The position numbers and the translations under genes are program-made. The notes beneath the pieces were generated by a model, which had not been told where the DNA came from, searched no databases, and saw nothing but the letters and a program-made list of their open reading frames with translations. Of a stretch of DNA of 64,000 bases, positions 18,454-43,879 are shown piece after piece (position 1 is the stretch's first letter; every line of letters starts with the position of its first letter). This DNA is from an uncultured Clostridia bacterium (GTDB taxonomy: Bacteria > Bacillota > Clostridia > Christensenellales > UBA1242): NCBI GenBank assembly GCA_944376905.1, contig CALWEA010000006.1, positions 3,563 through 67,562 of the forward strand, in the 5' to 3' direction.

Positions 18454-21400
18454 CTATTTATTTTTTAATTTATTTGAAACTACATTTTCTTTTTTATTAT
18501 TTTTTTTATCAGCAATTTTTTTAGTTGTTTTTACAACTTTTTTATTTGTTTTTAATTTGTTTGTAGAAATTGTTTTTTTTGCAGAAGAATTTTTAATATT
18601 AGATTTTATTTTACTTTCTTTTTTATTTGTTTTTGATATTTTTTTACTCGTATTATTTTTTTGTTTTGGTTGCATTTTGTCTAATTGTATTATATTATTT
18701 TCTTCCATATAAATTTTTTTGTTTTCATTTATTGCTTTAACAATTTTATTAATAACTTTTTCCTTGCTAAACCACCAATCTCTACTCCACACTCTCATGA
18801 TATTCCAGCCACGAGATTGCAAGAATTTATTTCTATAAACATCACGCTCTAAAATTGACTGACTACTTTTAGCAGCAGCATAATCACACTCAATTCCCAA
18901 TAAATATCTGTCTAATTGTTTGTCGTAAACTGCAAGTGAGATTTTATAATTTGTAGTTCCCAAATTAGTTTCAACAGCATATCCTAATTTAACCAATTCT
19001 GCTTTAATTTCATTTTCTAATTGATTAACAATTATCTCTGTTTCTGGCTGAGGTAATGAAGGTCTAAAACTATCTAAAATAAACTGTGCTTCTTTTGTTT
19101 TTTTGTTTGAAACCGCTCTAACATATTTTAAGTAACTTTTTAATATTTTAGGTCCTGAATTTTTCGAACTCTCAACAATAAGTTCTTCTGGCTCAATACT
19201 TGTTACAACAAATATCTTCTCTTTTGCACGAGTTATTGCAACATTTAATCTATTTTCTCCACCCTCGATGGAAAGCGGACCAAAATGTGCAACAACCTTT
19301 CCAAATTCATTTCTAGCATATCCTATACTAAATATTATAATATCTCTTTCATCACCTTGAACATTTTCAAGATTTTTTATAAAAATAGATGTATCCTCAT
19401 TGTTTTCTTTTCTATTTTGTTCCCTAATAAAAGCATCTCGAAATAATGAATCTTTTTGACATTCTGCATCAATTGCATCTTCAATAGCACTTTCTTGCTC
19501 AGCATTAAAAGTTATTATACCAATTGATGAATTATTTTTTTTGCTTTTTATAAGTTTTTTAAGAAGTTGAGCAACAGCAGTTGCCTCCGCTTCATTTCTT
19601 CGCCCAATCCATCTACCATTAACCATAATTCTTTGTATTGGTTTTTCTCCAATATTTTTAGAAATATTTGGTGCTATTTGTAATTTAGAATCATAAAAAG
19701 CAAAATTTGAAAAATCAATTAATTCTTGGTTTTTACTTCTATAATGATATGTTAAATTAGTTGAGTCGAATCTAGCAGTTGCCAAGTCTAACAAACTTTC
19801 AACTTCTAACGCCGCTTGGGTTGCCAAACTTAATTCTTCATCACTATCATTTCCCAAATATCTCTTAACAAACGTTGCAGTTGGACGCAATTGTTTATTA
19901 TCACCTGCAACAACAATGCATTTTCCACGATAAATAGTAGGCAATGTGTTTTCTATGAAAACCTGGCTTGCTTCATCAAATAATATAATGTCAAACATCT
20001 CTTTTTTTAACGGAAAAATATTTGATACGCTCTCAGGGGACAAAAGCCAGCACGGAAAAAGTTTTAAAAGATAATCACCATATAATTCCATTATTTGTCT
20101 TAACGGCAACAATCCTTGTTGTTTTGTTATTTGATAATAGTAATTTTGACTTTCCAGTCCAGTTTGAAAATGTTTTATATATTCTTCTTGAAATTTTCCC
20201 ATACAAATTGAAGCAGAGATTTGTTTTTGTTCTGTTGTTAAGGAAATAATTCTATTTCGAATATTTTCAAAATCTAAAATTTTAGGAAGCAAGTTTTTAT
20301 AATATTCTTCATAATAAATAGCCTCATGATAAACGCGCACTTCCAATAATTTATCTATAATATCTTTATATTGTTTTGGATTTTTACTATTTTCATATGC
20401 AAAATTTAAAATAATTCTTTCATCATCAGTTAGATTTCTTAATGCAACATTAACATCTCTTATTTCCAAATAATCTTCAAGAGCATTTAATAGTAATTTT
20501 ATAAAAACAGAATTACCATTTATGATATTATCAATAGTCATAAGATAACCTTGTCTATCTAAAACTTGCTCTATAATTTCATAATTTTTTATATAATTTT
20601 GAATTTCTTCAAGCGTGCTTTCAAAACTTTTATACAATTCTGCTTCTTTTTTATTCATTTGATTTTTTATAAATGGATAAGCAGGAAATAAAATTTTTGA
20701 TAAATTTAAGGTTGATAATAATTTTGGATTTTCTATTTGTGCAAGCATTTTTATTAAAGGTTTCATATCACTAATTGTATGAACATTATTTTCAAGCATA
20801 TAAACGAGTAGTTGACGAGCATGTGGGTTTTTTGTTGTGTCGAAAGGAACAATGTTTTTGCCAATTATTTCCTTTAAATATGTTTTCATTTGATTAATAG
20901 TATGAACCTCAACATTTGGCAAAATATGACTCGCAAGAGGATTATTTTTCTTTAATTGTATAAAACGATGATATAAACTTCCCTTATTTTTTTCTTTTAT
21001 AACTCGCAAGGCTGTATAAATTGTTTTGTAGTCCATATTCATTATGTCTTTGTTCTTTAACATTGCCTGATAAATTATGTAATCGAAACTATTTTTACCA
21101 ATTTTTGCTGAATTAGTGTACATTTCTTGCAATGTTAATCCAAAATCTGTTTTGGTAAATAAAACATTTGATATGGTTTCCAATTCGCTTATTTCATTGT
21201 TCAAATTTTGTGTTATAATATCAAATTGCTGTTGAAAATCTGGAATATCTTTTCCATAATCCATAACGGCTTTATGCATTTGACTAACTCTTTCATAAAA
21301 AGCAGTTTTATTCTTTTCCGCGTCAGTTACAAACATACATTTAGAATTTAAATTTTTCAAGCGATTAAAAACAACTTCCAACGCCGCTTTTTTTTGAGAA

Positions 21401-22533
21401 ACAACTAAAACTGTTTTATTTTTACATATTGCATCAGATATAACATTGACAATTGTTTGAGATTTTCCAGTTCCAGGTGGACCATATATAACCATATTCC
21501 CACTTTCATTTAACTGGCTTATAGCATTTTCTTGAGTAAAATCTAAATCATTTATTGTGTATATAGGATTAAGAAGTTTTTTATTGTTTTTTGATTTGTT
21601 GTTTTTTCTCTTAGGGAAACGTGCTTCTAATAGTTGTCGAATTGCCGGAGTTGTTAGGTGTCTTTTTTCTAATAAATCATAATCATTGTAAATAGAGTTT
21701 GCCAATGGATATCGACCAATAACACAAGTTTTAATAACTTTTAAAGGACTTAAATCAAAATTTGTCTCTTTTATATCATCAAACTTAACAAATTTTGAAT
21801 TAAAATTTTTTTCTTTTTCAAATTGAAATCCAAAAGTTTTTAAATAATCTAAAATATCATCAACATTTTTTAATCTATTTTCTTGAAGGTTGTCAAATTC
21901 TGTTAAAAGTTTTTCAGTGTTCAAACGATGCTCTTTTGCGTATGCCAAAATTAAAACCTTGTTAAGTTGAATGCTTGAATCAGATTTTAATTCAAGTGAA
22001 ACAGTAGTATTGTTTTCAATGTTTATAATAACAGGAAATAATAAAAGAGGTGCTTTTATTGCCAAATCTTTGTTAATATGCCCACTAACAAAAGGATATC
22101 CAATAAACAGTTCATAACGCCCTGTTTCTCTTGCAAATTCTTCAATTTCTCTTTTTAAAATTTTTAAAGCAGAAATTTGAGAAACAACAATTTTTTTACC
22201 TTCTTCTCTTCTAACCCTCTCTCGACGTAAATTCTCATTACGTTTTTCTTCTGTTGACATATTAGAAGTGTCTTGAAAAGAAATTTTTGCCTTTTCTTCT
22301 AAATTAAAATTTTTAAATAAACGTTGTTTTGCACTATTCCCAATTAATTCATAAGAATACCTTTTCCCCTGCCATAAAAATGCAAAAAATTTATCAAATT
22401 CTTCCTCATCTGCCCCAATAACAGCCCCAATATCATATGAAAATTTTTTACTTATTTTCTTTGAATATAAACTTCTGTTTTTTCCACTAATTTCAATTAA
22501 CCTTTCTTTATAATATTTGTAAATAGATTTCAT
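18454..22533 (-). CDS. Superfamily-1 (Dna2/Upf1-like) helicase with C-terminal Vsr/DUF559-like endonuclease domain and K-rich tail
   Basis: Carries YGPPGTGKSQT (Walker A), FDEASQ, ITFNAEQ, VQGDERDIIIFS and RLNVAITRAK. The C-terminal LGIECDY...ERDVYRNKFLQSRGWNIMRVWSRDWW matches the Vsr-fold nuclease pattern. Confidence 0.85.
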   Translation of the reverse strand: MKSIYKYYKERLIEISGKNRSLYSKKISKKFSYDIGAVIGADEEEFDKFFAFLWQGKRYSYELIGNSAKQRLFKNFNLEEKAKISFQDTSNMSTEEKRNENLRRERVRREEGKKIVVSQISALKILKREIEEFARETGRYELFIGYPFVSGHINKDLAIKAPLLLFPVIINIENNTTVSLELKSDSSIQLNKVLILAYAKEHRLNTEKLLTEFDNLQENRLKNVDDILDYLKTFGFQFEKEKNFNSKFVKFDDIKETNFDLSPLKVIKTCVIGRYPLANSIYNDYDLLEKRHLTTPAIRQLLEARFPKRKNNKSKNNKKLLNPIYTINDLDFTQENAISQLNESGNMVIYGPPGTGKSQTIVNVISDAICKNKTVLVVSQKKAALEVVFNRLKNLNSKCMFVTDAEKNKTAFYERVSQMHKAVMDYGKDIPDFQQQFDIITQNLNNEISELETISNVLFTKTDFGLTLQEMYTNSAKIGKNSFDYIIYQAMLKNKDIMNMDYKTIYTALRVIKEKNKGSLYHRFIQLKKNNPLASHILPNVEVHTINQMKTYLKEIIGKNIVPFDTTKNPHARQLLVYMLENNVHTISDMKPLIKMLAQIENPKLLSTLNLSKILFPAYPFIKNQMNKKEAELYKSFESTLEEIQNYIKNYEIIEQVLDRQGYLMTIDNIINGNSVFIKLLLNALEDYLEIRDVNVALRNLTDDERIILNFAYENSKNPKQYKDIIDKLLEVRVYHEAIYYEEYYKNLLPKILDFENIRNRIISLTTEQKQISASICMGKFQEEYIKHFQTGLESQNYYYQITKQQGLLPLRQIMELYGDYLLKLFPCWLLSPESVSNIFPLKKEMFDIILFDEASQVFIENTLPTIYRGKCIVVAGDNKQLRPTATFVKRYLGNDSDEELSLATQAALEVESLLDLATARFDSTNLTYHYRSKNQELIDFSNFAFYDSKLQIAPNISKNIGEKPIQRIMVNGRWIGRRNEAEATAVAQLLKKLIKSKKNNSSIGIITFNAEQESAIEDAIDAECQKDSLFRDAFIREQNRKENNEDTSIFIKNLENVQGDERDIIIFSIGYARNEFGKVVAHFGPLSIEGGENRLNVAITRAKEKIFVVTSIEPEELIVESSKNSGPKILKSYLKYVRAVSNKKTKEAQFILDSFRPSLPQPETEIIVNQLENEIKAELVKLGYAVETNLGTTNYKISLAVYDKQLDRYLLGIECDYAAAKSSQSILERDVYRNKFLQSRGWNIMRVWSRDWWFSKEKVINKIVKAINENKKIYMEENNIIQLDKMQPKQKNNTSKKISKTNKKESKIKSNIKNSSAKKTISTNKLKTNKKVVKTTKKIADKKNNKKENVVSNKLKNK

Positions 22534-23452
22534 ACTAATACCTCTTTAACCCTTTTTATAAATTAAAAAATATTGTATATTTTATAACATAACACTATAT
22601 TTAGTAGCAGTTTGTTTATTTAATGTTAATATATGTTGATATTATAACAAAATTATTAAAGATATTCAAGTAGCATTTAAAAATAAAAATAAATTTTAAT
22701 TAAAAATTAAAAAATTATAAAAAAAATACATTAAAATAAAAATAAAATTTTTAATAGTAAAAAATGTAAAAAATAAAAATTTCAAAAATGCATATTATAT
22801 CGATAAAAAAATAAAAAAATTATTAATTATACTTGAAAAATGATTTTTTTTATGTTAATATAACACTGCTAAATGGCAATTGTTAATTAAAATTTTGTTA
22901 ATTTAATTAATTGTTAATTTTATTAATTACTAAATATCGAATCATTTAACTATAGTGTTATTTGAATTAAAAAATATTAATACATTTTAAACTGTAAATT
23001 AATAAAGTTGCAATAAAATTTTAGTTAATATTTAAAAACAATCAACAAAAATAATTAAAAAATTTTTAAATAATAAACATTTAATTTTTAACAATACAAT
23101 TAGCAAAAAATTATATTTTGGATAAAATAATAACTAAGCCCAACAACTATGTAACGACTTATATTTTATTTTTAATAATGATATTTTTCCGCACTAATAA
23201 AATAACCCCAAAAACTGATTTATAAAAAATAAAAAATTTATTATATCTTATCTTTCTATTTTCAGTTATGAAACAATCAGTTATAAATTAATTTGCCAAC
23301 CATTTAAAGAACTAGATATTATTAATAAAAAACACCAATATTTAATAAAATGTTATAATAAATATAACAATAAAATCTTAGAAAATTCATAATAAAAAAA
23401 TGCCCAAATTTAACTGGAAAAAAAACTCAACAATTTAATAAAAATTGCATAT

Positions 23453-23497
23453 GCTAACGTAGCACAGTCGATAGTGCACCGCCTTGGTAAGACAAGG
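23453..23497 (+). pseudogene. 5' fragment of a tRNA-Thr-like gene (acceptor 5' arm to anticodon loop)
   Basis: GCTAACGTAGCACAGTCGATAGTGCACCGCCTTGGTAAG aligns with positions 1-39 of the intact tRNA 100 bp downstream, then diverges. Confidence 0.7.
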
Positions 23498-23552
23498 AAA
23501 TTGCATTTTAAAACAATTCTACAACTAAATATTTGCTCCATTTTGGAGCTAT

Positions 23553-23628
23553 GCTGATGTGGCACAGTCGGTAGCGCACCGCCTTGGTAAGGCGGAGGTC
23601 ACGGGTTCAAGTCCCGTCATCAGCTCCA
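23553..23628 (+). tRNA. tRNA-Thr (anticodon GGU), CCA encoded
   Basis: Hand-folded cloverleaf: acceptor GCTGATG/CATCAGC, anticodon stem CCGCC/GGCGG with loop TTGGTAA, T arm ACGGG-TTCAAGT-CCCGT. Length 76 nt. Confidence 0.9.
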
Positions 23629-23719: not shown

Positions 23720-23854
23720 TTGCTGTCAATTTTAGGACTAATTGCTGTCAAAGTAGGGACAAAAAAAATAGACCGATAGTTAACAACCTAACTATCGGTC
23801 TAAATCTTTTATAAACTGCCTAAAACTAACATATTTGCTGTCAATTGCTGTCAA
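23720..23854 (+). promoter_or_regulatory. attL-side arm region of E1: four direct TTGCTGTCAA repeats around a hairpin and a conserved box
   Basis: Repeats start at 23720, 23742, 23835 and 23845. A hairpin with a 13-bp stem lies at 23770-23801, followed by AAATCTT..CTAAAACT. Confidence 0.7.
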
Positions 23855-24663
23855 ATTATAATTTTTGAATTTATATCAATTGAAATTATATCTTCAATTA
23901 AAATGTTCTCTTCTGCAGTATAGAATTCATATTCTACTTGTTCGCTATTTTCAAAGTTTATTCTTGCAAATATATTATCAACTAGTGTTCTTAATCCAAA
24001 TTTTATTATTTGGGTTGGCTTTAGTTTTAGAATTACTAAATATGGTTTACTTAATCTATTCAATTTCTTCCCTAGCGAATAATTTTCGATACAAAAATAT
24101 TGAATTTCTCCACCATAATTATTGTATAGATTATATAATCCACTATCATTGCTATTAGAAATATTTACATTCCCTAAAGTTACCCATAGCTGATTTTCTC
24201 TCATATTGTTTTTTTTAATTAACAAATTGTGTTCTTTTAAAAAATCAGCTTCTGTTTCATTAATATAACCATCTTTTAACAAATTTTCTATTCTAATAAA
24301 AAGATTTTCTATAGATGAAGTTTTTAATCCATTAAATATAATTCTATCTCTCTCTTTGTTTGTATACCTTGATGCGTGAAAACATATAAAAGCTTTATTT
24401 TCCGACAATAAAATATTATAAAACCTTTCTTTTAATTCATCGAGAGTGTCGTAATATTCGTTTCTTAAATCAAAAATTTTATAAATTTTATTTTCACGTT
24501 TATACTGCTCTTTTAAATCAAAAATTTCTTTCTCTTTTTCCCTAAATTTTTCAATTATTTCATAATTATCCCTTATCAAATCCTTTATAGAGTTTGACCA
24601 CGTATCAAAACAATTAATAATTATTTCATCTTTACTTCTATATTTTCTTACTTCTAAATTCAT
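23851..24663 (-). CDS. Orphan protein (about 270 aa) in the attL-int cargo slot; function unknown
   Basis: The ORF is long for such AT-rich sequence. TGCTATAAT (extended -10) ends 6 nt before ATG 24663, so the mRNA may be leaderless. The ORF-track start 24687 is a TTG inside that promoter. No family motif recognised. Confidence 0.65.
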   Translation of the reverse strand: MNLEVRKYRSKDEIIINCFDTWSNSIKDLIRDNYEIIEKFREKEKEIFDLKEQYKRENKIYKIFDLRNEYYDTLDELKERFYNILLSENKAFICFHASRYTNKERDRIIFNGLKTSSIENLFIRIENLLKDGYINETEADFLKEHNLLIKKNNMRENQLWVTLGNVNISNSNDSGLYNLYNNYGGEIQYFCIENYSLGKKLNRLSKPYLVILKLKPTQIIKFGLRTLVDNIFARINFENSEQVEYEFYTAEENILIEDIISIDINSKIII

Positions 24664-24695
24664 ACTGATATTATAGCATAAATACAAATAAATTG

Positions 24696-26057
24696 CTACA
24701 TCTCAAAATCTTTTTCTCTTTTCTTTCTTTTCTCTTTTAGTTTTTCAAGTTCACAAATCCTTTGTTCTATTTCTTCATCTGTCATTTTGTCTCTTGAAAA
24801 TTCCTCGACTTGTTCTTTCTGCTTTTCTTGAATTTTTGTGTTAAGTCTATCAGTTGCTTCTCTTACATAATCGCTATTGACAGAATTATAAACTGTGATT
24901 GTTGTTTTAACATCTCTATGTCCTAAAAGTTGTTGGATAACTTTTGGATTTTCGTTCATTTCAAAAAGCATATTAGAAAAAGTGTGCCTTAATCCGTGAA
25001 AATGAATATCGAATTTATCTAGTCCATTTCTTCTTTTAAATCTATCAAATATCTTTCTAGTTCCCGAATAAGTCCTATAACTTCCATCATCGTTAGCAAA
25101 CACAAAAGATGTAGGAGATGTCAAAGTAGCAGTCACATCAGGATTAGTTTTTTGTCTATCATACTGCTTATCTTTCCACTGTCTTAAAGTTGCTATGACA
25201 ATATCGGCAACAGGTATTTCTCTTACACTGCAAGTTGTTTTCGTATCACCAATGACTGTTATTCGGTCTTTAATATTGCCTTGTTCATCAAACTTAGGCA
25301 CTTGTGTTATTGCTCTTTCAACTTTTATTGTTTTATTGTCAAAGTCTATGTCTTTCCATTTTAAAGCAAGAGCCTCACCAATACGAAGTCCCGCAAACAT
25401 AAGAGTAATGCAAAGTGGCTTTATAAAATTTGCTTCATCTTTATTTAAAGCATCTAAAAATTTATCCCTAATCTCTGGTGGCATTGCTTTATATTTTTCA
25501 TCATCATTTGCTTGATAAATATTCCTTTTGCCTTTAATTTTTACTTTAAGTGTAGGATTTACAAGTATCCATTTGTTATCAATTGCATATTCAAAAAATT
25601 GATTTAATAAGTGTTTACATTTTTTGACGGTATCATTACTATATCCTTGTTCCATTAAATTGTTAACTAATTTTTGTATAGTATAGTTATCTATTTCATA
25701 AACTTTCATTTTGCCTATTAGTGGAGCAATATGCAATTTGAAATTTCTAATGTTCCCTTCAAATGTTCGTGAACTTACAGCACTCTTTTTAAAAGTCATA
25801 AGATATTCAAACATCAAACTTTCTATGTTGTTTTGCTCAACTAAATCATACGAATTACTTTTTATTCTACCACTTATTTCAGAAAGTTTTTTAACTATTT
25901 CTGCTCTAGATTTTCCATAAATTGTCTTTCGTATAATCTTTCCATTTTCATCATAGCCCATCGTTAGTGCTCCGCCCCAACGACCATCACTTCTTTGAAA
26001 AATTGAACCTTCATTATTTGCTCTACGAGTTCTCTTAACTGCTTTCTTTTTAGCCAT
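24696..26057 (-). CDS. Tyrosine recombinase/integrase with N-terminal arm-binding-type domain
   Basis: Carries NNEGSIFQRSDGRW... (AP2-like arm-binding N-terminus), LRIGEALAL, HGLRHTF and LLGHRDVKTTITVY catalytic-region motifs. The ATG overlaps the xis stop (ATGGCTAA). Confidence 0.9.
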   Translation of the reverse strand: MAKKKAVKRTRRANNEGSIFQRSDGRWGGALTMGYDENGKIIRKTIYGKSRAEIVKKLSEISGRIKSNSYDLVEQNNIESLMFEYLMTFKKSAVSSRTFEGNIRNFKLHIAPLIGKMKVYEIDNYTIQKLVNNLMEQGYSNDTVKKCKHLLNQFFEYAIDNKWILVNPTLKVKIKGKRNIYQANDDEKYKAMPPEIRDKFLDALNKDEANFIKPLCITLMFAGLRIGEALALKWKDIDFDNKTIKVERAITQVPKFDEQGNIKDRITVIGDTKTTCSVREIPVADIVIATLRQWKDKQYDRQKTNPDVTATLTSPTSFVFANDDGSYRTYSGTRKIFDRFKRRNGLDKFDIHFHGLRHTFSNMLFEMNENPKVIQQLLGHRDVKTTITVYNSVNSDYVREATDRLNTKIQEKQKEQVEEFSRDKMTDEEIEQRICELEKLKEKRKKREKDFEM

Positions 26058-26304
26058 TTTGCACCTCACTTTGAGCATTGTTGAGTGTTAGCCAAGTCAC
26101 AAAATTTAGCACACTTACAACTTGTCTTTTCCCGACTTTTGTTGTTGGGAAAGTTTTGCTTCGCATAAGATTTCTCACATTATCTCTGCCAAGTCCTGTG
26201 ATTTTGATAAGGTCCTCACAGTCTAAAAAATCTTTGCCATATTTTAAAGAAATTCTATTCACTTCGCTTTGTATAAGTTCGTTTAAATTGATTGTATTTT
26301 GCAT
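26050..26304 (-). CDS. Excisionase-like / MerR-type HTH DNA-binding protein
   Basis: 84 aa with ITGLGRDNVRNLMRSKTFPTTKVGKRQVVSV. Translationally coupled upstream of int. Paralogs sit at the same position in E2 and E3. Confidence 0.7.
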   Translation of the reverse strand: MQNTINLNELIQSEVNRISLKYGKDFLDCEDLIKITGLGRDNVRNLMRSKTFPTTKVGKRQVVSVLNFVTWLTLNNAQSEVQNG

Positions 26305-26692: not shown

Positions 26693-27871
26693 CTACATTT
26701 CGTATTCATTTCTTTCTCTATAAGCTTCAAGTTTTTCAAAAAATCTTTGAAATTCTATCATCTCATATTGCTCTTGCTGTTTGTAGTAATCTAAACAAGA
26801 GAACAAATATTCAAGTTGTCTTTTTCTCTGTCGTTTCTTGAAAAATCTATCTCGCTTTGTGTGAGTTGTTATGCTGTCTAATTTGTCTTTAATCTTGCCA
26901 ATTTCGAGTGCTGTTTGAATTGTCTTATTGCCAAGCCTTCGCATTAATTCATTGTGATAAATCTCTGGGTCATACTTGTCTGGTATGTGTTTGTAATTTT
27001 TGTTTTGCCAAATTTTAAGATTTAAAATTTGAGTTTTGTAGTCAAGATATTTCAATTTCATTTCTTTGTTTGAATAGATAATACTTTCGGTCAGTTTATC
27101 AACTTCGTTTTTAAGAAACTCCATATTTTCGCTGTCATAACTAACTCTTCCTGTCTTTGGTATTTGTGAATATAACTTCAAAAACTTTCTTTTAAGCGAC
27201 CGTGTCATTTCAAAAATATTAGCGCTTCCATTAAACTCTTCTTTTAAATCTTTTCGCAATTTGACAATCTCGGCAGTTTTGTTTGTGAGCGCTTTTTCAA
27301 AGATAAGTTTGCTTGTGATTAAAACATCTTTTGGTATCTTTCCAGAATGATAGGAGAGTGTTCTATTATTCTTCATAAACTGTGGTTCTTTCTCAAAAAA
27401 TGATATGTGGATATGCTTGTTTTCGGTGTTCTCGTGTAGTCCTGCATACCAAACAATGTTGTCTTTATCAAGTCCTGCACGAGTAAAGAATTTTGGCAGC
27501 TCTTTCTTTAAAAAGTTGTAGGCTTGCTCATAATCTCTGCAATACTCGTCACCAAATTCTTCACGAAAAGAAATCACACAATCCCATATACAACTTTGAG
27601 TGTCCCTTAACATTTCTCTTAACCCTCGTTTCTCATCATCACTTAAAAGACCTTTCGAACTAAACACACCGCAAGACTTTTCACTGTTGCCAACATATTC
27701 AGTGTAATCTTTTGGAACGCTGTCAAGACTACCTGTGTCAACATAACTGACATAGTTATAACTGCCATTGCAACTTAAAAATTCTCGCTTACGAATTTTA
27801 TCTTCTTGCTTTGTGTTGTATTTATCACTTGGCTTGTAATACTTGCAAATAAAAACAATGTTATCTGTCAT
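26693..27871 (-). CDS. Relaxase-like mobilization protein (His-triad H-x6-H-x-H)
   Basis: WYAGLHENTENKHIHISFFEK has the spacing of the HxDExxPHxH relaxase motif. The N-terminus is Tyr-rich. Preceded by a coupled RHH gene. Four paralogs in the window. Confidence 0.65.
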   Translation of the reverse strand: MTDNIVFICKYYKPSDKYNTKQEDKIRKREFLSCNGSYNYVSYVDTGSLDSVPKDYTEYVGNSEKSCGVFSSKGLLSDDEKRGLREMLRDTQSCIWDCVISFREEFGDEYCRDYEQAYNFLKKELPKFFTRAGLDKDNIVWYAGLHENTENKHIHISFFEKEPQFMKNNRTLSYHSGKIPKDVLITSKLIFEKALTNKTAEIVKLRKDLKEEFNGSANIFEMTRSLKRKFLKLYSQIPKTGRVSYDSENMEFLKNEVDKLTESIIYSNKEMKLKYLDYKTQILNLKIWQNKNYKHIPDKYDPEIYHNELMRRLGNKTIQTALEIGKIKDKLDSITTHTKRDRFFKKRQRKRQLEYLFSCLDYYKQQEQYEMIEFQRFFEKLEAYRERNEYEM

Positions 27872-28098: not shown

Positions 28099-28175
28099 AC
28101 TTCCTCCTTTTTAGTTTTAGATTTTGAGTTTAAATTTAATTTTACATTTCACACCTCCTTTTAAATTATTTTACT

Positions 28176-28385
28176 ATTCTCGCATTATCAACATTTGATA
28201 ATGCGGAAATAGTTTTCGCAAAGATTTTAACATTGTCGCTGTATCAACATTTGATACAGCGGGAAAACTTTTTCAACTTTTTTACACTTTAACATTCTCG
28301 CTGGCTCACCATTTGAACCTGCGAGAAATATTTTTCAAATTTAATTTACCATAGTCGCGTGTTCACCGTCTGAACACGCGGAAAA
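28176..28385. repeat. Array of four spaced hairpin units (stems at 28181-28205, 28237-28261, 28297-28325, 28356-28380)
   Basis: Units have the form ATTCT-CGC-N4-TCAA-CAT-TTGA-N4'-GCG-GAAA. The N4 differs between units but stays complementary. Unit spacing is 56-62 bp. Confidence 0.85.
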
Positions 28386-28692
28386 ATTTGTTAAGAAAAA
28401 ATATCTCTGCTTCTGCAAAGATATTAGTCCCTCTACTTATATAACCAACACTTTTTTAATTTTGTGGGGTCATTTTGAGCCTTTTTTTTAAAATAATTTA
28501 AAAAATTTTTACATAACAAAAAAAGAAGCAAGCAAAAACTTACTTCTAACAATGCAAAAGAAAACTTTTCTTTATTTTAATTTCTTTTGAAAGTACATTT
28601 TTCAACACAAACAAAAAATAATATTATTATATAAAATAATAAAAGAGTGTTATAGCAATTTGCCTTTAACACTCTTTTTGTTGTTTGTTAAT

Positions 28693-29589: not shown

Positions 29590-30285
29590 TTAGAAAACCA
29601 CCGGATAGTCCGGTGGTTCCGTGGAGGTTTACCGTTGAGTAAAAATACCTCCTATGATATAATATTTTTGTAGTCTGCCAAGAATACAAAAATATTTAAT
29701 AGGAGGTATGTCATGAAAGACACAAATAGTTTAGCACACAGCTCGTGGAATTGCAAGTATCATATAGTTTTTGCACCTAAATACAGAAGAAAGGTATTTT
29801 ATGGAGAAAAAAGACATGAAATAGGTGCAATTCTACGAGATTTGTGTGCTTGGAAAAATGTTCAAATCATAGAAGCAGAAGCATGCCCAGATCATATACA
29901 TATGCTTGTGGCAATCCCGCCTAAATACAGCGTAGCTGGATTTATGGGTTATCTAAAAGGTAAAAGTAGCGTATTGATTTATGCAAAATATGCTAATATG
30001 AAATTCAAGTATAGAAATAGAGAATTTTGGTGCCGTGGCTACTATGTAGATACGGTCGGAAAGAATACAAAAAAGATAAAAGAATATATCGCAAACCAGT
30101 TAGCAGAAGATAAAAGAATGGAACAAATGACAGTGTATGAAATAGTAGACCCATTTAGTAAGAAATAAAGGTTTGCGTAAATGCAACCGTGCCGGCAGGC
30201 TACTAACGACGCGATTTCGCGTCGCAAAGAACAGAGGGTTTTACCCTCAAATGAAAAACCACTAGTTTTACTAGTGGATTTTTAT
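29590..30285 (+). mobile_element. IS200/IS605-family insertion sequence (IS200-like, tnpA only)
   Basis: About 0.7 kb unit with a Y1 transposase gene. Subterminal hairpins lie at 29595-29617 and 30259-27, each preceded by GAAAA(A)CCAC. Extra 3' hairpins lie at 30208-30223 and 30234-30248. Exact ends were not determined. Confidence 0.7.
29713..30168 (+). CDS. tnpA: IS200-family Y1 (HUH) transposase
   Basis: Carries HSSWNCKYHIVFAPKYRRK, HIHMLVAIPPKYSV (HUH) and the RGYYVDTVG tyrosine region. Length 151 aa. Confidence 0.9.
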   Translation: MKDTNSLAHSSWNCKYHIVFAPKYRRKVFYGEKRHEIGAILRDLCAWKNVQIIEAEACPDHIHMLVAIPPKYSVAGFMGYLKGKSSVLIYAKYANMKFKYRNREFWCRGYYVDTVGKNTKKIKEYIANQLAEDKRMEQMTVYEIVDPFSKK

Positions 30286-34929: not shown

Positions 34930-36126
34930 TTACATTTCAAAATCACTACTTAAATATCCTTGTTCAATCAATGTTTTAATTCTCATCTCTTCAAGCGTAT
35001 TCATATAATCTTGAAATGCTTTAATAGTCTCGTATTCAACCTTTGAATTAAGATATAAACACTCATCAATTTCTTTTATCAACTTGCGTTTTTGAATGCG
35101 TTTTTCTACCAAATTTTTAGCATTCAATTTTAATCTATCGTTTTCTTTAAGTTTTAAATTTTTAGCACTTTCAATGACAAGATTGCCAAGTCTTCGATAG
35201 ATATCATTCATCATTTTATCGCCAACACTTTGAATAGGTTTATCATACCCGTTACGCCTGCAATAGTTGTTCACAAGTTCATCTTTTTCTTTCACCATTT
35301 CATCAAAATCTTGTTTGTAAAGTGATATATTTGAATTGTGTTTAATGATGTAGTTTGAAATATTATCAACCTGTGATTTTAAATTTTGCATACTTTCAGA
35401 ATTGTAAAAAGTGGGCTTATTTTGTGGAATTTGATTTGCAAGACTTATTAGCATATTCTTTAATTTAAGACTTGAAATCCCGCTTATTTCCTCTTTAAAA
35501 CTTTTTGTTAAATTAGTTCTTAACTTAATCTCTCGTGCTTTAAAGTCGGTTGCTATAAGTTCAATATTTGCCTTAAACTCGTCCATTGCCTTTGATGATA
35601 TTCGGCCACGAGAAAAACCTTTTTCATTACCTCTAATTCGCAAAGGTTGTTTCTCAAAAAAGACTATGTGAATATGCCTGTTATCAGTGTTTTCGTGAAG
35701 CCCTGCAAACCATTCAATGTTGTTAGGATTAAGTCCTGCTCGTTTGAAATATTTAGGCAATTCACTCTTAACTAGATTGTAAGCTTGCTCAAAATTTGCA
35801 CACCATTTTTTGCCAAACTTCTCTTCAAAAGAAATAATACCGCTCCAAATAACTGACTTTGTTTTTCTTAAATCTTTTCTCACTTTTGCAATATCTTCAC
35901 TTTTCATCTTACCATTTTGATTAAATATTCCAGATGATTTTGAATTATTGTTTGAATACTCGACAAAATCAAGTTTTTGTAAATCCTTAATACCCGTTGC
36001 AATATATTTTAAATAATCACTATATTTGTTTGAAGAATAATAATCTCTCTTGTCCTGCATTTTCTTATCTTTGTAGTGGGGTAGAAAGAACTCTTGCATA
36101 TACACAACATTAGGAACACTATTCAT
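34930..36126 (-). CDS. Relaxase-like mobilization protein (paralog, module B1)
   Basis: WFAGLHENTDNRHIHIVFFEK. Same architecture as 26693-27871 and ends in DFEM. Confidence 0.65.
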   Translation of the reverse strand: MNSVPNVVYMQEFFLPHYKDKKMQDKRDYYSSNKYSDYLKYIATGIKDLQKLDFVEYSNNNSKSSGIFNQNGKMKSEDIAKVRKDLRKTKSVIWSGIISFEEKFGKKWCANFEQAYNLVKSELPKYFKRAGLNPNNIEWFAGLHENTDNRHIHIVFFEKQPLRIRGNEKGFSRGRISSKAMDEFKANIELIATDFKAREIKLRTNLTKSFKEEISGISSLKLKNMLISLANQIPQNKPTFYNSESMQNLKSQVDNISNYIIKHNSNISLYKQDFDEMVKEKDELVNNYCRRNGYDKPIQSVGDKMMNDIYRRLGNLVIESAKNLKLKENDRLKLNAKNLVEKRIQKRKLIKEIDECLYLNSKVEYETIKAFQDYMNTLEEMRIKTLIEQGYLSSDFEM

Positions 36127-36577
36127 TTAACAACTCTCGCAAATGGTTTTGTTTTTCTTCTTCAAGTCCATACTCATCAAGTGGAGTATATTTCCAATTG
36201 TTTGTGTAGTTGTATATATTGATATTGCTAATTTTATTTAAAAGTTTAGTTATTAAGTTCAAAAGCGATTGATTAGTTTTAATCTCAGCATTTGTTTGAA
36301 CATAGTCCATTTTTTGCCTGCCCATAATATTTGCAAGTTTTTCATCTATGTTTTGCAAATATTTTCTTATCTCCGAAAAGTTTATACTTTGATTTATAAC
36401 ATTATCTCCAAGCAGTTTATCCGCACCAACCAAAGCAAAATACTTTACCATATCACTTTTGCTGTCAAACTTATCTGCAAACATTTTAATTGCTCTTTCA
36501 AAAACCTTGTTTTCTTCTTCATCATACACCCGAAACAAATAACAATTCTTTAAATCTTTTGTTTTTATTCTTGCCAT
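36119..36577 (-). CDS. Relaxosome accessory-type protein (about 150 aa, RHH-like N-terminus)
   Basis: Overlaps the relaxase start. GGGAGG SD lies before ATG 36577. N-terminal YLFRVYDEEENKVFERAIKMF...MVKYFALVG. Confidence 0.5.
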   Translation of the reverse strand: MARIKTKDLKNCYLFRVYDEEENKVFERAIKMFADKFDSKSDMVKYFALVGADKLLGDNVINQSINFSEIRKYLQNIDEKLANIMGRQKMDYVQTNAEIKTNQSLLNLITKLLNKISNINIYNYTNNWKYTPLDEYGLEEEKQNHLRELLNE

Positions 36578-36675
36578 AAAACCTCCCAATAATTTTTAAA
36601 GTCTTTCTATATCTTTTCCTATTTCAAATTAAAGGGACAATAATTTTCACCTCCTTTTAATTTACAACAAAAAAA

Positions 36676-36700
36676 AGAACTGTCGGCGGATAACAGTTCT
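36676..36700. promoter_or_regulatory. Conserved hairpin AGAACTGT-CGGCGGATA-ACAGTTCT upstream of the mob operon
   Basis: Same loop with different stems at 45723-45747 and 58972-58996. Followed by a CCCCTCAT..TATA box (minus-strand TATAAT-like). Confidence 0.7.
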
Positions 36701-36787
36701 CTATTTCGTTTTATATTTATAGCCCCTCATTATATAGGACAAAAATAAGCAAAAAATTAAGGCATTTTTAGAGTTTTATGTTAAATT

Positions 36788-37531
36788 TTAAAAAAATTTT
36801 TGTTTTAAAGCCTTTTCTTTCAGTTTTTCAATAAAATCATCAACCATTTTTAACACTTGCATAACATTTCCTTTAAAAGTTTTAAGTTTTTCAAAGTGAG
36901 CCTCAATTCCATATTCTGCAAATGCTTTGTTTGTATTTTTAATCCAATTATCGTCAAGATTAGAGTAGTCAATTTGTTTGCTTAATTGCTCTTTAATGTT
37001 TTTATTTGCACCAGTCTTTATTGTGCGTGAAATTGCTTTCTTAATCTCTTTTATCAAATCTTGCACATCATTCAAATTTACTTTAAATTGACCAGTTTTT
37101 CTTATTTCTTCAATATATTGTTTAAATCCTTGTTCGGTTTCAAGTTGTAGATTATAAAATTCTTCAGTATCTTTAAATTCTTTATCATTGCAAAGATAAG
37201 TGCGATAATTTAAGAAAATCGTATCAAGTCTTCCATTGATAGCAGCAGGGCTAATACCTAACTTTTCGGCAATATCTTTTTGCTTAACACCAGTCATATA
37301 GTCAAGCAAAATTTCTCTATCTTCTTGTGACAATTTATAAATATTCCTGTATAAAACTTTAGTGTTGATTTTCTTCTGCCATTCATCTTCAGCAGAAACA
37401 GAGTAGTGTCCATGATTTGCGATAACGTTTTCTATATCTTGACCAGTTTTCTGTTCAATCTGTGAAAAACTAACTTCGTGCCTTCTTACTTTTCTTTCCA
37501 AGCTTTCTATACTAGGTTGTTTATCTTCCAT
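36788..37531 (-). CDS. Sigma-70 region-4 / LuxR-type HTH protein (element regulator)
   Basis: LSQEDREILLDYMTGVKQKDIAEKLGISPAAINGRLD. A paralog sits at the same relative position in E2 (45833-46600). Confidence 0.55.
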   Translation of the reverse strand: MEDKQPSIESLERKVRRHEVSFSQIEQKTGQDIENVIANHGHYSVSAEDEWQKKINTKVLYRNIYKLSQEDREILLDYMTGVKQKDIAEKLGISPAAINGRLDTIFLNYRTYLCNDKEFKDTEEFYNLQLETEQGFKQYIEEIRKTGQFKVNLNDVQDLIKEIKKAISRTIKTGANKNIKEQLSKQIDYSNLDDNWIKNTNKAFAEYGIEAHFEKLKTFKGNVMQVLKMVDDFIEKLKEKALKQKFF

Positions 37532-37569
37532 ATTTTATACCTCAAAAATTAAGATTAATGGTTAAACTA

Positions 37570-38925
37570 TCAAAAATTATATCTTGATTTTATAATTTCT
37601 TTTATTTCTGACAAAGTATAATCTGCTTCCTCAAAAATCATACATTCTATTAAAACCAAACCAACCAAAAATGCACAAATTGAAGGATTAGTAAAATCAA
37701 TAACGCCTCCGTGAGCATCATTATTTCTAAATTTTGAAAATTCATCACCTAATAATTTTTCGTTTTTCAATCCATATCTATGTAGAATTTTTGTTAAAAA
37801 ATTATCAATAGCTGGCTGGTAATGTCCTAAACATCTATTATATTGGGTAGCAACAGAATTTAAATCATTATAAAGAACTTCTATTATATGTTTGTAGTAT
37901 TTCTTATAATTCTTATTTAATTTTTCTTTTTCAATTTTTTCATCTAGAATTTGTTTTATATACTCAATACTATCTATTTTATATTTATCTTTTTTGGGCA
38001 ATGTTTTAAAAATAAGTTCATAGTTATGTTCAAATGCTCCACAAACTTTTATATAACTTTCAGATGTAATGTATTTTGCTTCAAAGTTATCTTTTGCAAT
38101 AAAATTATTATTCAAATCATTTTCAGTAATTTTTGAAAATAGTTTTCCAATATTGGGCACTAAATTATTTATTGTATAAGATAATTTTATATCATTTAGT
38201 TTAGCAGTATTATCAATAAAATACCCGATTTTATCGAAATTTCCATTTGAACTTTTCAATCCCACTTCAATTTCCTCAAAATAAATATCTTTTTGTTTTA
38301 TTAAGAACTGAAAAAATTTACGAACAGAGATATATAATGGTAAAATCTCTTTAATGTCTTTTTCTTCTTCAAAATGAATTTCAAAGTAAGAAACTAATTT
38401 GCCCAAATCTTCATCTTTCGGATTAATAGTTCCTGGCCAATATACACCAAATTTGCAATGAATTTGCTCTTGATTAATAGTAGTTTCAAAATCCACATCT
38501 GTTTCATCAAAACTTTTTAGTATAATTTTTTTTGAACCATCAAATTTAGCTTTTAAATTTCTTGCACTATCATATTTTACTTTTTGTATAGGGGGAAATA
38601 ATAAGTTAACTATTTTCCCCTTAAATAATAATCTATTAAATTTATTTTTAATCGGCCCAGCATATCTTGGAATAAATATCATTGATGGGTAAATGACAGC
38701 AGTATCATCTATAATATTATTTCGGCAAATATTATTATATAAACCAACTAATCCACCAGTCGTAAGATTTGCCATTAAAAATTCTTCTTTCTTTTCCATG
38801 CCTAATCCTACGCCTTCATCTTCTAATAAATTGAGATTTAACTTTTTCCCATCATAATAAAACGAATATTTGTCATTTTTACTAAAAACATCACTTATAA
38901 AGCCACTAAATTGATAATTTTCCAC
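37570..38925 (-). CDS. HEPN-like (Rx4H) protein, ApeA-like architecture
   Basis: 451 aa. C-terminal FSKFRNNDAHGG fits the HEPN R-x4-H motif in a helical region, and the N-terminal two thirds look beta-rich. The start lies 2 nt after the MmeI-like stop. Confidence 0.45.
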   Translation of the reverse strand: MENYQFSGFISDVFSKNDKYSFYYDGKKLNLNLLEDEGVGLGMEKKEEFLMANLTTGGLVGLYNNICRNNIIDDTAVIYPSMIFIPRYAGPIKNKFNRLLFKGKIVNLLFPPIQKVKYDSARNLKAKFDGSKKIILKSFDETDVDFETTINQEQIHCKFGVYWPGTINPKDEDLGKLVSYFEIHFEEEKDIKEILPLYISVRKFFQFLIKQKDIYFEEIEVGLKSSNGNFDKIGYFIDNTAKLNDIKLSYTINNLVPNIGKLFSKITENDLNNNFIAKDNFEAKYITSESYIKVCGAFEHNYELIFKTLPKKDKYKIDSIEYIKQILDEKIEKEKLNKNYKKYYKHIIEVLYNDLNSVATQYNRCLGHYQPAIDNFLTKILHRYGLKNEKLLGDEFSKFRNNDAHGGVIDFTNPSICAFLVGLVLIECMIFEEADYTLSEIKEIIKSRYNF

Positions 38926-38927
38926 TT

Positions 38928-41684: not shown

Positions 41685-41852
41685 AAGTAAATCTCCATAA
41701 AACGATTATACCATAACTTTATTTAAATTGGTATTTAATTTCCAAAAAATTATTACTTATAACAAAATCAATTTTTCTTTTAAAAAGTAGACAATCAACC
41801 TTAGTAGTTTTATACAGTCCTAGAACGACTAAATTGCTCAAAAATACCACAT

Positions 41853-41872
41853 TTGCTGTCAATTGCTGTCAA
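41853..41872 (+). promoter_or_regulatory. attR-side arm repeats of E1 (TTGCTGTCAA x2)
   Basis: ATTTGCTGTCAATTGCTGTCAAA is identical to 23833-23855. It lies about 107 nt left of the TTGGTAAGG core at 41980. Confidence 0.65.
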
Positions 41873-41978
41873 AATTAAATAGTAAAATACAGCAAATATT
41901 TTTGTAATATTATAATCGCATTTATTTATCTATGTTTTTAAGATGCGGGGCTCACACACTTTATTTATAGGGCTCAAT

Positions 41979-42024
41979 CTTGGTAAGGTAGGGGTCACGG
42001 GTCCGATTCCCGTCACCAGCTCCA
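41979..42024 (+). pseudogene. 3' fragment of a tRNA-Thr-like gene (anticodon loop to CCA)
   Basis: CTTGGTAAGGTAGGGGTCACGGGTCCGATTCCCGTCACCAGCTCCA aligns with positions 31-76 of the intact tRNAs. No matching 5' half lies upstream. Confidence 0.8.
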
Positions 42025-42031
42025 TAAACAA

Positions 42032-42076
42032 AATCGCTAAAAGGCCGAAAAATAAAGGCTTTTAGCGATTTTTTTG
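42032..42076 (+). terminator. Terminator hairpin after the tRNA fragment
   Basis: AATCGCTAAAAGGCC ... GGCTTTTAGCGATT followed by a T-run. Confidence 0.65.
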
Positions 42077-42120: not shown

Positions 42121-42269
42121 TGGTGTCAAATGGTGTCAATTTGCTCTACTCACTAAAAAATTACACAAAAAAAGACCGCCTTTCAAGAAAATTTTTCATT
42201 TCTCAAAAAGCGGTCTAAATCTTCCTAAAACTATCAAAAGGTGTCAAAAAGGATGTCAAATGGTGTCAA
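42121..42269 (+). promoter_or_regulatory. attL-side arm region of E2: five (T/A)GGTGTCAA-type repeats around a hairpin and a conserved box
   Basis: Repeats start at 42121, 42131, 42239, 42251 (GGATGTCAA) and 42261. Hairpin AGACCGC...GCGGTCT spans 42173-42216, followed by AAATCTTCCTAAAACT. Confidence 0.7.
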
Positions 42270-42273
42270 GTTT

Positions 42274-43626
42274 TCACATCTCAAAATCTTTTTCTTTTTT
42301 CTTTCGGCGAAGTTCCTTTTGTCTTAAAAGTTCTTCAAGTTGTTCTTCTAATTCTTCATCAGTAAGCTCATCAGCCTGTTGTGATTTTTCTTGCGTAAAG
42401 TTTTTACTAATACTTTCATTCAGTCTGTCTGTTGTTGCTCTCACATATTCATTGTTCACACTGTTGTAAACTGAAATTGTTGTTTTTACATCTCTATGCC
42501 CAAGCAGTTGTTGGATTGCTTTTGGATTTTCATTTAACTCAAAAAGCATATTTGAAAATGTGTGTCTTAAAGTGTGAAAATGAATTTGATAATCATTTAG
42601 GTTATTTCTTTTCTTAAATCTATCAAATATTTTTCGTGTGCCTGAATATGTTCTAACACTTCCGTCATCGTTGCAAAATATATATCTATCACTTTTAATA
42701 AGGTCAAAGTTTATTTCTATGCTTTTAATTGATTGTTTGTTTTTCCATTCTTGCAAAGAATTAACCACAACATCTGTGATTGGTATTGTTCTAACAGAAC
42801 AAGCTGTTTTGGTATCGCCAACAACAGTTACTCTTTTTGTAATATTTCCATCGCTATCAAAACTAGGCACTTGTGTTATGCCACTTTCTATGCTTAAAGT
42901 TTTCTTTTGTTCATCAAAGTTATCCCAGCGAAGTGCTAAAACCTCTCCAATGCGTAATCCTGCAAATAGTAGTGTTACGCATAAAGGTTTTAAAAAATTG
43001 CTTTCATCTTCATTAAGTGCTGTAAAAAATTTCTCTCTGACTTCTGGTGTCATAGCCTTGTATTTGTTTTTATCATTATTTTGCACTCTGTCTTTTGTTC
43101 TAACTTTTACTTTTGCTGTTGGATTAAATTGCACCCATTTGTTATCTATTGCATAATCAAAAAATTGATTGAAAATAAATTTCACTTTCTTAATAGTGTT
43201 GTTATTATACTCCTCATCTATCATAGCATTTACAACTTTTTGTATTGCGGTTGTGTCTATTTCATAAACTTTCATTTTGCCAAGCATTGGTTCTATGTGT
43301 AATTTAAAATTTCTAATATTACCTTCAAAAGTTCGTGGGCTTACCGCACTCTTCTTGAAAACCAACAGCCACTCTTTCATAAGTTCTCCAAAGGTTTTCT
43401 TTTCTAAAATTTCATAAGAATTGCTTTGTAGTCTGCCAGAAATTTCACTTAATTTTTTTGCTATTTCTGTTTGGTTTTTCCCATAAATAATTTTACGAAT
43501 TGGCTTGCCTTCTTCATCAAATCCCATACTCACATAACCAGCCCAACGACCATCTTTTCGTTGAAAGATTGAACCCTCATTATTGGCTCGTCTTGTTTTG
43601 TTTACGACTTTGTTTTTCTTAGCCAT
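42274..43626 (-). CDS. Tyrosine recombinase/integrase (E2)
   Basis: Paralog of 24696-26057 with HTLRHTF and LLGHRDVKTTISVY. The ATG overlaps the xis stop. Confidence 0.9.
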   Translation of the reverse strand: MAKKNKVVNKTRRANNEGSIFQRKDGRWAGYVSMGFDEEGKPIRKIIYGKNQTEIAKKLSEISGRLQSNSYEILEKKTFGELMKEWLLVFKKSAVSPRTFEGNIRNFKLHIEPMLGKMKVYEIDTTAIQKVVNAMIDEEYNNNTIKKVKFIFNQFFDYAIDNKWVQFNPTAKVKVRTKDRVQNNDKNKYKAMTPEVREKFFTALNEDESNFLKPLCVTLLFAGLRIGEVLALRWDNFDEQKKTLSIESGITQVPSFDSDGNITKRVTVVGDTKTACSVRTIPITDVVVNSLQEWKNKQSIKSIEINFDLIKSDRYIFCNDDGSVRTYSGTRKIFDRFKKRNNLNDYQIHFHTLRHTFSNMLFELNENPKAIQQLLGHRDVKTTISVYNSVNNEYVRATTDRLNESISKNFTQEKSQQADELTDEELEEQLEELLRQKELRRKKKEKDFEM

Positions 43627-43879
43627 TCGCCACCTCACTTGTGTTGTTTTTAAGTGTTAGCCAAGTGACAAAATTAAGCACACTTACGACTTGTCTTTTA
43701 CCAACTTTTGTTGTTGGAAAATCTTTGCTACGCAAGAGTTGTCTTACATTATCTCTGCCAAGCCCAGTGATTTTCATAATATCTTCACAGTCTAAAAAAT
43801 CTTTATCATATTTAGTTGAAATTCGGTCAACTTCCGATTGAATTAAATTGTTAATATTAAGTTGTTGATTGTTGTTCAT
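43619..43879 (-). CDS. Excisionase-like HTH protein (E2)
   Basis: Paralog of 26050-26304. ATG 43879 matches the paralog N-termini; the ORF-track extension to 44002 is unlikely. Confidence 0.7.
   Translation of the reverse strand: MNNNQQLNINNLIQSEVDRISTKYDKDFLDCEDIMKITGLGRDNVRQLLRSKDFPTTKVGKRQVVSVLNFVTWLTLKNNTSEVANG

Follow-up and report, generated by a model that had tools for sequence, protein, structure and literature searches.

The window analyzed here, a 64,000-nucleotide (nt) stretch of contig CALWEA010000006.1 from an uncultured Clostridia bacterium with a composition of about 28% GC, contains three elements, designated E1, E2, and E3. In E1, an integrative mobilizable element at a tRNA-Thr(GGT) gene, a minus-strand gene (23851-24663) for a 270-amino-acid (aa) protein from an uncharacterized family fills the interval from the integrase stop codon to the first arm-type repeat. 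Comparison of related elements shows that this interval is a recombination hotspot that takes a single self-contained cassette (a promoter with one gene or a short operon), and that the cassette varies among otherwise near-identical elements. The 270-aa gene is real and evolves under purifying selection. As to its role, the chances appear evenly balanced that the protein is a stand-alone effector against phages or mobile elements that benefits the host of the element, by analogy with its slot-mates PARIS, AbiL, AbiU2, and Ppl.

A cassette hotspot between the integrase gene and the arm-type repeats

The strongest single result is the comparison of two near-isogenic loci, L001 and L026, whose integrases are 98% identical and of which only the former carries the gene. 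Their DNA alignment reveals a cassette of ~840 nt located exactly between the integrase stop codon and ATAATTTGACAGCAA, and the last two codons and the stop codon of the cargo open reading frame (ORF) are backbone sequence. In E1, the integrase stop codon lies 32 nt upstream of the cargo ATG at 24663, and the cargo stop codon TGA (23851-23853) falls inside an arm repeat TTGACAGCAA at 23845-23854, which is the second of two tandem proximal copies on the minus strand (23835-23854). Two distal copies of this repeat (23720-23729 and 23742-23751, minus strand), both exact matches, are kept in L001, L011, and L026. Between the proximal and distal copies, a terminator scan detected a terminator-like hairpin (23769-23802, both strands) with a 15-pair GC-containing stem followed by the T-run TTTTTTTT; the stem is invariant across four aligned elements, the empty one included, and thus belongs to the conserved backbone. 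E1 and L007 are mosaic with respect to each other, being 91-96% identical in the integrase block, 70-83% in the cargo, and about 60% in the relaxase region.

The other two elements of the window represent an empty and a filled state of the slot. In E2, the slot (42240-42276, minus strand) contains no ORF, and the integrase stop codon TGA (42274-42276) is followed 4 nt on by three TTGACA[CT]C-type repeats (42240-42269). In E3, the slot (53488-55385, minus strand) holds an ATPase-DUF4435 gene (53488-55353/55374), which is identified as a fused AriAB (PARIS) gene (PADLOC 4e-69) with its own TGCTATAAT box at 55377-55385 and a TAA stop codon 4 nt from three TGTACCTA-type arm repeats. The coordinates and factual statements that an earlier reading of the sequence alone (hereafter the sequence-only reading) had given for the three elements all hold. 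They need one correction, in that a frameshift divides the E3 integrase gene into two ORFs, one for 194 N-terminal aa (56228-56812) and one for 270 C-terminal aa (55419-56231). E3, the AriAB-carrying element, is probably no longer able to excise.

We extended the comparison to 43 further loci (L021-L063), obtained by scanning metagenome contigs with the integrase alignment, in which the interval from the integrase stop codon (after ...KDFEM) to the tRNA gene was mapped and the ORFs inside were annotated. In every case, the cargo follows the integrase stop codon and is bounded on its other side by the arm repeats or terminator preceding tRNA-Thr; the tRNA-Thr gene itself was found beyond the slot in L001, L005, L011, L012, and many of the integrase-scan loci. 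Empty slots occur in L026 and L034 (232-233 bp) and in L044 (no ORF), and at least 15 different occupants were recognized across L021-L063. The known defence genes among them encode AbiLi (2e-61) together with RloB in L036, HEPN_AbiU2 (6e-11) in L042, and a Ppl-like 919-aa ATPase (4e-20) in L030. Other occupants include Schlafen-AlbA_2 proteins (L023, L041), which are possibly conflict-related, an AAA_21/SMC ATPase, DUF6883 (L040) and DUF4143 (L039) proteins, and uncharacterized proteins in L021, L027, L031, L039, L043, L045, and L047. None of these 43 loci carries a member of the 270-aa family. The idea of a defined cargo slot, originally drawn from E1-E3, is thus borne out by the filled L001 and empty L026 pair and by about 40 related elements that are either empty or carry other genes.

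The slot is conceptually the same as the defence hotspots described in P4-like satellites and P2-like prophages (Rousset et al., 2022, PMC9122126) and the defence cargo of integrative elements in Escherichia coli (Hochhauser et al., 2023, PMC10121019). As in those systems, a fixed position is bounded by a conserved core, its content varies among near-identical elements, and PARIS and Abi-type genes with promoters of their own are among the occupants. In contrast to them, the carrier is a small mobilizable element with a MobL relaxase, integrated at tRNA-Thr in gut bacteria of low GC content, and the cargo is wedged so tightly between the integrase stop codon and the arm-type repeats that its ORF terminates within the first repeat. 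The new aspects are the type of carrier and its hosts, the tightness of the slot, and the presence of a widespread occupant family without a database description. Mobile-element defence hotspots have so far been the most productive source of new immune genes, and this one is unusually clean, with one cassette at a time, exact junctions, and a near-isogenic empty control. The list of slot contents also provides about eight more uncharacterized candidates, including ORFs of 220, 197, 260, 227, 443, 198, and 138 aa and the AlbA_2 proteins.

The 270-aa gene and its family

We identified 21 close homologs of the 270-aa protein with 61-99% identity, mostly of full length (264-292 aa). The ORF list also offers a TTG start at 24687; all full-length homologs begin with M-[DN]-[LI] at the ATG. 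Pairwise dN/dS values among six homologous genes range from 0.14 to 0.38, far from the value near 1 by which the sequence-only reading would have recognized an ORF without conservation. A profile of 17 homologs searched against 1.84 billion representative proteins yielded 339 clusters (at 50% identity) at E<=1e-3 and, with the cut-off lowered to E<=1e-10, 62 clusters. With few exceptions these are stand-alone proteins with a length of 240-290 aa, and they span low- and high-GC bacteria. The alternative that the ORF is non-functional, either an ORF that arose by chance in AT-rich DNA or the remnant of a decaying gene, draws on nothing except the AT-rich composition and is practically nil in probability, being refuted by the 339 clusters of near-equal length, the dN/dS values, the confident structural model, and the conserved start geometry (see below).

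The close homologs come from metagenome and genome contigs, and an integrase gene immediately precedes each of them. A scan with the narrow alignment found three species genomes, and the host metagenome-assembled genomes of the close homologs belong to Christensenellales, Candidatus Onthoplasma, and an uncultured Clostridia bacterium. No tRNA was detected in the P0016 group (L007-L010, L013), where other genes follow on the contig. No relatives were found among IMG/VR contigs and GenBank phages, and we therefore rejected phage carriage of the close subfamily, even though one structural relative is present in BFVD.

The window protein has no match in Pfam, NCBIfam, PADLOC (E<=1), or PHROGs, and a search of the Protein Data Bank (PDB) by sequence, using both the single protein and the profile, returned only a spurious match to NKG2-D (E 0.2). 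Likewise, 73 members of the family compared with Pfam, PADLOC, and NCBIfam have no family in common and give only scattered, mutually unrelated weak matches.

A conserved promoter geometry and a predicted leaderless transcript

The sequence-only reading assigned to the gene a promoter of its own with a short or absent leader, and the homologs agree with this. In E1, 6 nt separate the extended -10 box TGCTATAAT (24670-24678, minus strand) from the ATG, and a Shine-Dalgarno sequence is absent; in E3, the same box is found 8 nt before an ATG at 55368 and 23 nt before the ATG at 55353, which is preceded by the Shine-Dalgarno sequence GGAAGG. The shorter motif TGNTATAAT is enriched in the window, with 22 copies versus 8.3 expected, and from this number the chance of finding one in a given 32-nt gap is about 0.002. 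The arrangement TGNTATA[AC]T, exactly 6 nt, and ATG without a Shine-Dalgarno sequence is kept in five independent homolog loci (E1, L001/L012, L005, L007/L013, and L011), of which L005 has a different integrase. The spacers between the box and the ATG are unrelated (atcagt, gtgtgt, atttat, and attgat) and contain no purine-rich Shine-Dalgarno sequence. Given the fixed 6-nt distance, transcription is expected to start on or next to the A of the ATG, and the conserved geometry suggests that the cargo mRNA is most likely leaderless.

Most other slot cargos have a similar -10 box followed by a normal GGAGG and spacer. In particular, AbiU2 (L042) and AriAB (E3) resemble the 270-aa gene in their slot, the style of the extended -10 box, and the single-gene organization; however, they have no sequence relationship to it and possess a Shine-Dalgarno sequence, in contrast to the predicted leaderless organization of the 270-aa family. 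A further three uncharacterized slot cargos (L045 357-1688, L050 6029-6926, and one in L062) display an extended -10 box, 7 nt, and ATG without a Shine-Dalgarno sequence, and leaderless expression may be recurrent in this hotspot.

Genomic context of distant relatives

Seven of the ten distant homologs whose context was analyzed are located in mobile elements or defence islands. In L015, the gene belongs to a serine-recombinase/primase element and lies 24 nt upstream of a gene similar to Upx, a characterized anti-phage nuclease (PMC13099982). In L017, it directly follows a type I hsdR gene, whereas L018 represents an island with IS21, Shedu, and toxin-antitoxin genes. Two homologs are plasmid-borne: the one on Sphingomonas plasmid p150 is flanked by a type ISP restriction-modification gene with AAA ATPases on one side and by an SbcCD-like pair on the other, and the one on Marinobacter plasmid pMAQU01 is near SIR2 and IS elements. 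The remaining two are found beside a tyrosine integrase gene in an element carrying CBASS and ArdC (L068) and beside an integrase fragment (L069). The argument of guilt by association, by which the gene had been nominated as a candidate defence or addiction module, is thus strengthened from two sides, by the slot-mates AriAB, AbiLi with RloB, HEPN_AbiU2, and Ppl and by the settings of these relatives, which are mainly inside, rather than outside, mobile elements and defence islands.

Distant members often form tight two-gene pairs with varying partners, namely a 1254-aa Upx-like protein (L015 7819-11583), a 420-aa uncharacterized protein (L019 7848-9110), a 254-aa uncharacterized protein whose gene overlaps by 4 nt (L064 7606-8370), and an upstream 181-aa ORF (L014 3-548). 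Outside the subfamily of mobilizable elements, the protein may therefore work with a partner.

The same contexts bear on a different explanation, that the protein is a counter-defence or establishment factor. After transfer, it would protect the mobilizable element or its helper conjugative element from host immunity, e.g., through modification or blockage of a defence protein or nucleic acid of the host. Anti-defence genes of mobile elements lie in the vicinity of defence genes, and the L068 homolog resides in an element that also encodes ArdC-N/MPTase-PolyVal and RadC; moreover, ADP-ribosyltransferase-like enzymes serve counter-defence as well as defence. On the other hand, the other identifiable slot occupants are defence rather than anti-defence genes, the gene is positioned at the integrase/attL end and not beside the relaxase region, relatives are lacking among GenBank phages and IMG/VR contigs, and the predicted constitutive expression in the integrated state suits host protection better. 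We consider a counter-defence role quite unlikely.

Conserved motifs and predicted fold

In the alignment of 73 family members, with pairwise identity down to about 20%, residues H96, E104, G184, and G185 are invariant, and R99, I108, G112, R155, E186, and P207 are conserved in at least 90% of sequences. The resulting family signature is [FY]H.[ST]R[LY]T..E...I...GL ... R ... [WY]GGE ... G.P, accompanied by a conserved TWP motif in the N-terminal part. The three motifs that had been suggested from the single sequence fared differently: the His of FHASRYT and the GGE of NYGGE are conserved family-wide, whereas VEYEFY, its Glu included, is not. The invariant His and Glu and the near-invariant Arg residues suggest that the protein is an enzyme.

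The AlphaFold2 model based on 17 close homologs had a pLDDT of 63.7 and its Foldseek search gave noise; with the 73-sequence alignment, the model reached a pLDDT of 94.7 and a pTM of 0.90. It predicts helices at 24-88 and an alpha/beta core at 89-270, that is, one compact two-part fold with a mostly helical region 1-88, in agreement with the helical N-terminus and larger domain deduced previously. A Foldseek search of this model against the PDB returned nothing at E<=0.001. The first three neighbors, E. coli DarT1 (8baq) and Tpt1 (8tg3 and 8tfi), all have the ADP-ribosyltransferase fold, with VIP2 at a lower rank, so the structural search that had been recommended points in one direction without reaching significance. 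In BFVD, the only significant match is an uncharacterized Siphoviridae protein (E 1e-5), and the weak matches include a phage Tpt1-like protein, a PARP catalytic domain, and an ADP-ribosyltransferase.

We compared the protein with these candidates feature by feature. The strand that contains H96 (92-100) leads into helix 102-111, and nearly all of the aligned sequences displayed have S or T at position 98; the H-x-[ST] motif on the first strand followed by a helix, a feature of the H-Y-E clade (PARP, DarT, and Tpt1), is thus present. The clade also has a conserved aromatic residue (Tyr) on the next core strand. In strand 159-164 following R155, positions 160-161 are occupied by W, Y, C, or F, and there is no invariant Tyr. 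DarT1 (PMC11543638) is the best Foldseek neighbor in the PDB; it shares the first-strand H-x-[ST] and subsequent helix, both proteins are short enzymes, and DarTG is a defence system, as proposed for the 270-aa protein. However, the DarT1 match is non-significant (E 0.63, TM 0.23-0.28), hhalign detects no profile similarity, the slot holds the gene alone without an adjacent DarG/NADAR partner, and the 270-aa protein has an extra conserved N-terminal part of 88 residues. The C-terminal NAD+-binding lobe of Tpt1/KptA takes Foldseek ranks 2-3 and is the source of one hhalign segment, and by eye the strand, helix, R-led strand, helix, and G.P-led strand follow each other in similar order; nevertheless, P is 0.01-0.04, the N-terminal lobe and the Arg-His-Arg-Arg set of Tpt1/KptA are absent from the 270-aa protein, and the latter has large helical insertions at 118-150 and 165-205. 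The sole hhalign segment aligns FH.TR..I..GL with LYHGT..I..GL; the Tpt1 alignment was built from PDB chains and the DarT alignment from 31 sequences with PF14487 in the precomputed annotation of the database. An ADP-ribosyltransferase fold of the core is a convergent but statistically unsupported lead, which we hold as a tentative and rather doubtful assignment, and the protein is not filed as an ADP-ribosyltransferase because the hhalign comparisons with both Tpt1 and DarT are non-significant.

Other enzyme classes were rejected from the conservation pattern: 2H phosphoesterases, which need two H-x-[ST] motifs whereas only one His is invariant; HEPN proteins, whose R-x4-6-H motif is absent; and PD-(D/E)xK and HNH nucleases, for which no matching invariants exist.

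The resemblance to Tpt1 is also relevant to the explanation that the protein is an accessory enzyme outside biological conflict, such as a Tpt1-like RNA or nucleotide 2'-phosphotransferase, a repair enzyme, or a small-molecule modifier like the slot GNATs. In its favor, Tpt1 is the protein to which the weak motif match points, GNAT acetyltransferases and further genes without an evident defence character are among the slot occupants, and some distant homologs adjoin aminoglycoside N-acetyltransferase, GNAT, or polysaccharide genes. However, the lack of the Tpt1 N-terminal lobe and catalytic set, the non-significant similarity, and the predominance of defence or mobile-element islands among the contexts make such a role highly unlikely.

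A possible mechanism of the proposed effector and its weaknesses

The geometry of the cassette predicts constitutive transcription from the extended -10 box into a leaderless mRNA with the ATG at 24663 as its first codon, and transcription of cargo and integrase would end at the backbone hairpin 23769-23802. In the model, the protein consists of the mostly helical residues 1-88 with the T-W-P motif and of the core 89-270, which carries [FY]-H-x-[ST]-R, E104, I108...G112-L, R155, [WY]-G-G-E (184-186), and P207. The core might be a divergent Tpt1/DarT-type enzyme of the ADP-ribosyltransferase fold that uses NAD+, the assignment judged doubtful above, in which H96 and R99 would be located on the first strand, R155 on the second, and E186 would act as the catalytic acid; NAD+-dependent ADP-ribosyl or phosphotransfer chemistry is speculative. 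Since no partner gene fits in the slot, the protein would have to be self-restrained, and since there is no room for a separate antitoxin gene, we propose that the N-terminal helical part holds the enzyme inactive until infection. The most specific version, in which the 270-aa family is an unrecognized divergent Tpt1/DarT-like clade acting as an antitoxin-free, self-silenced anti-phage effector whose leaderless mRNA would still be translated when phage or stress remodels initiation, is considered unlikely.

A single-chain toxin could alternatively serve as an addiction or stabilization module, with a built-in inhibitory domain that penalizes loss of the element and with no anti-phage role. The single gene with predicted constitutive expression, the two-part architecture, and the conserved acid/base residues are compatible with this, and one distant homolog has a RelB antitoxin gene as its neighbor, whilst another belongs to an island of toxin-antitoxin pairs. 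Post-segregational killing, however, needs a labile antidote separate from a stable toxin, which one polypeptide does not simply supply; near-identical elements manage without the gene, and free exchange of occupants is typical of defence cargo. Thus, addiction appears very unlikely as the function of this gene.

Several observations weigh against the effector proposal. Three of the ten distant homologs are located in an ordinary chromosomal setting, namely after a ribonucleotide reductase gene, among polysaccharide genes, and in a GNAT/RelB islet. The slot also holds genes that do not look like defence, including two GNATs (L033, L035), KilA-N (L028), and an SDH-type protease (L054), and possibly a TrpRS/TyrRS-like gene in L038, where the contig ends before the tRNA and the gene may be flanking DNA. 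No PADLOC model fits the family, the 73 members giving five single unrelated matches with E >= 0.00095. The fold assignment is non-significant (Foldseek E 0.6-2, TM 0.14-0.28); hhalign against Tpt1 gives a probability of 1-4% and P of 0.04 (0.011 for the core alone) and covers the first motif only, and against the DarT alignment it gives a probability of 0.1% and no similarity. In the model, E186 is at the start of helix 185-192, whereas classical ADP-ribosyltransferases have their catalytic Glu on a strand, which in the H-Y-E clade is the beginning of the fifth strand. Finally, a constitutive toxin without an antitoxin needs an autoinhibition mechanism, which is here only postulated.

If the gene is indeed a defence gene, it would represent a new single-protein system from poorly studied gut Firmicutes and possibly a new kind of NAD+-dependent enzyme, in a family of 339 clusters whose predicted structure is confident and yet has no significant solved neighbor.

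The carrier element and other features of the window

E1 is assigned as an integrative mobilizable element because it encodes an integrase, a Xis-like HTH_17 protein, and a MobL relaxase. Its integration target, tRNA-Thr(GGT), was located by ARAGORN at 23553-23628 on the plus strand, at the attL side. The tyrosine integrase (24696-26078, minus strand; C-terminus ...KDFEM) matches Pfam Phage_integrase (9e-26) as well as SAM_3 and Phage_int_M; the 84-aa Xis-like protein (26050-26304, minus strand) matches HTH_17 at 0.003, below the gathering score, and PHROG excisionase families at about 1e-3; and the MobL/MOBP-type relaxase (26693-27871, minus strand) matches Pfam MobL (2e-22) and, below the cut-offs, NCBIfam MobP2/MobP3 (about 1e-22). 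All three genes lie within about 5 kb adjoining tRNA-Thr, with no conjugation machinery, and the gene order is repeated in L001-L004, L007-L011, and L026.

The search for an attR site by repeats did not detect the 3' part of the tRNA again on the right side of E1. The sole tRNA copy is a 5' half at 23450-23491, 88% identical to 23550-23591 and 100 nt upstream of the intact tRNA-Thr gene, which was probably left behind by a previous integration or excision event; these elements seem to cross over at the anticodon loop rather than at the 3' end. Just upstream of the E1 genes for a 76-aa protein and the MobL relaxase, four tandem repeats of ~57 nt (28168-28391), each with a 9-10 bp palindrome (e.g., CGCATTATCAACATTTGATAATGCG), could be iterons, operators, or oriT. 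On the opposite side of tRNA-Thr, a 1359-aa helicase-nuclease (18454-22533) with DUF4011, AAA_11/AAA_12, and MTES_1575 domains matches PADLOC models PDC-S37 (8e-170) and Hhe (1e-92), and thus the tRNA gene has defence genes, known or candidate, on both sides.

Every integrase and MobL relaxase of these elements ends with the tripeptide [FY]-E-M (...KDFEM, ...SDFEM, ...NFEM, ...GFEM, or ...EYEM), the one variant being the L001 MobL, which ends with ...DFDM; the two protein families are otherwise unrelated. In the window, the tripeptide was found in the proteins encoded at 24696-26078, 26693-27871, 34930-36126, 42274-43638, 44101-45306, 55419-56231, and 57405-58637, and it also occurs in L001, L007, L011, and L026. 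Judged by this shared ending, it looks like a short C-terminal docking or export signal, for example for the coupling protein of a helper element, which would mean that the integrase is co-transferred.

A fourth element remnant without an integrase gene (34930-42035) contains a MobL relaxase gene (34930-36126), three genes for uncharacterized proteins, and a gene for an MmeI-like type IIG restriction-modification enzyme (38928-41684; PADLOC 1209 bits). Its boundary is formed by TTGACAGCAA repeats of the E1 type (41853-41872) and by the 3' half of a tRNA-Thr gene (about 41979-42024), with the break at the anticodon loop. Between E1 and this remnant lies an IS200/IS605-type TnpA-like ORF (29713-30168), judged by its N-terminal sequence only. 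The distal part of E3 encodes a 727-aa fusion of an EcoRI-like N6-adenine methyltransferase and a C5-cytosine methyltransferase (61696-63879), and the distal cargo of E2 is a BspA-type leucine-rich-repeat surface protein (46845-48605; LRR_5 2e-72).

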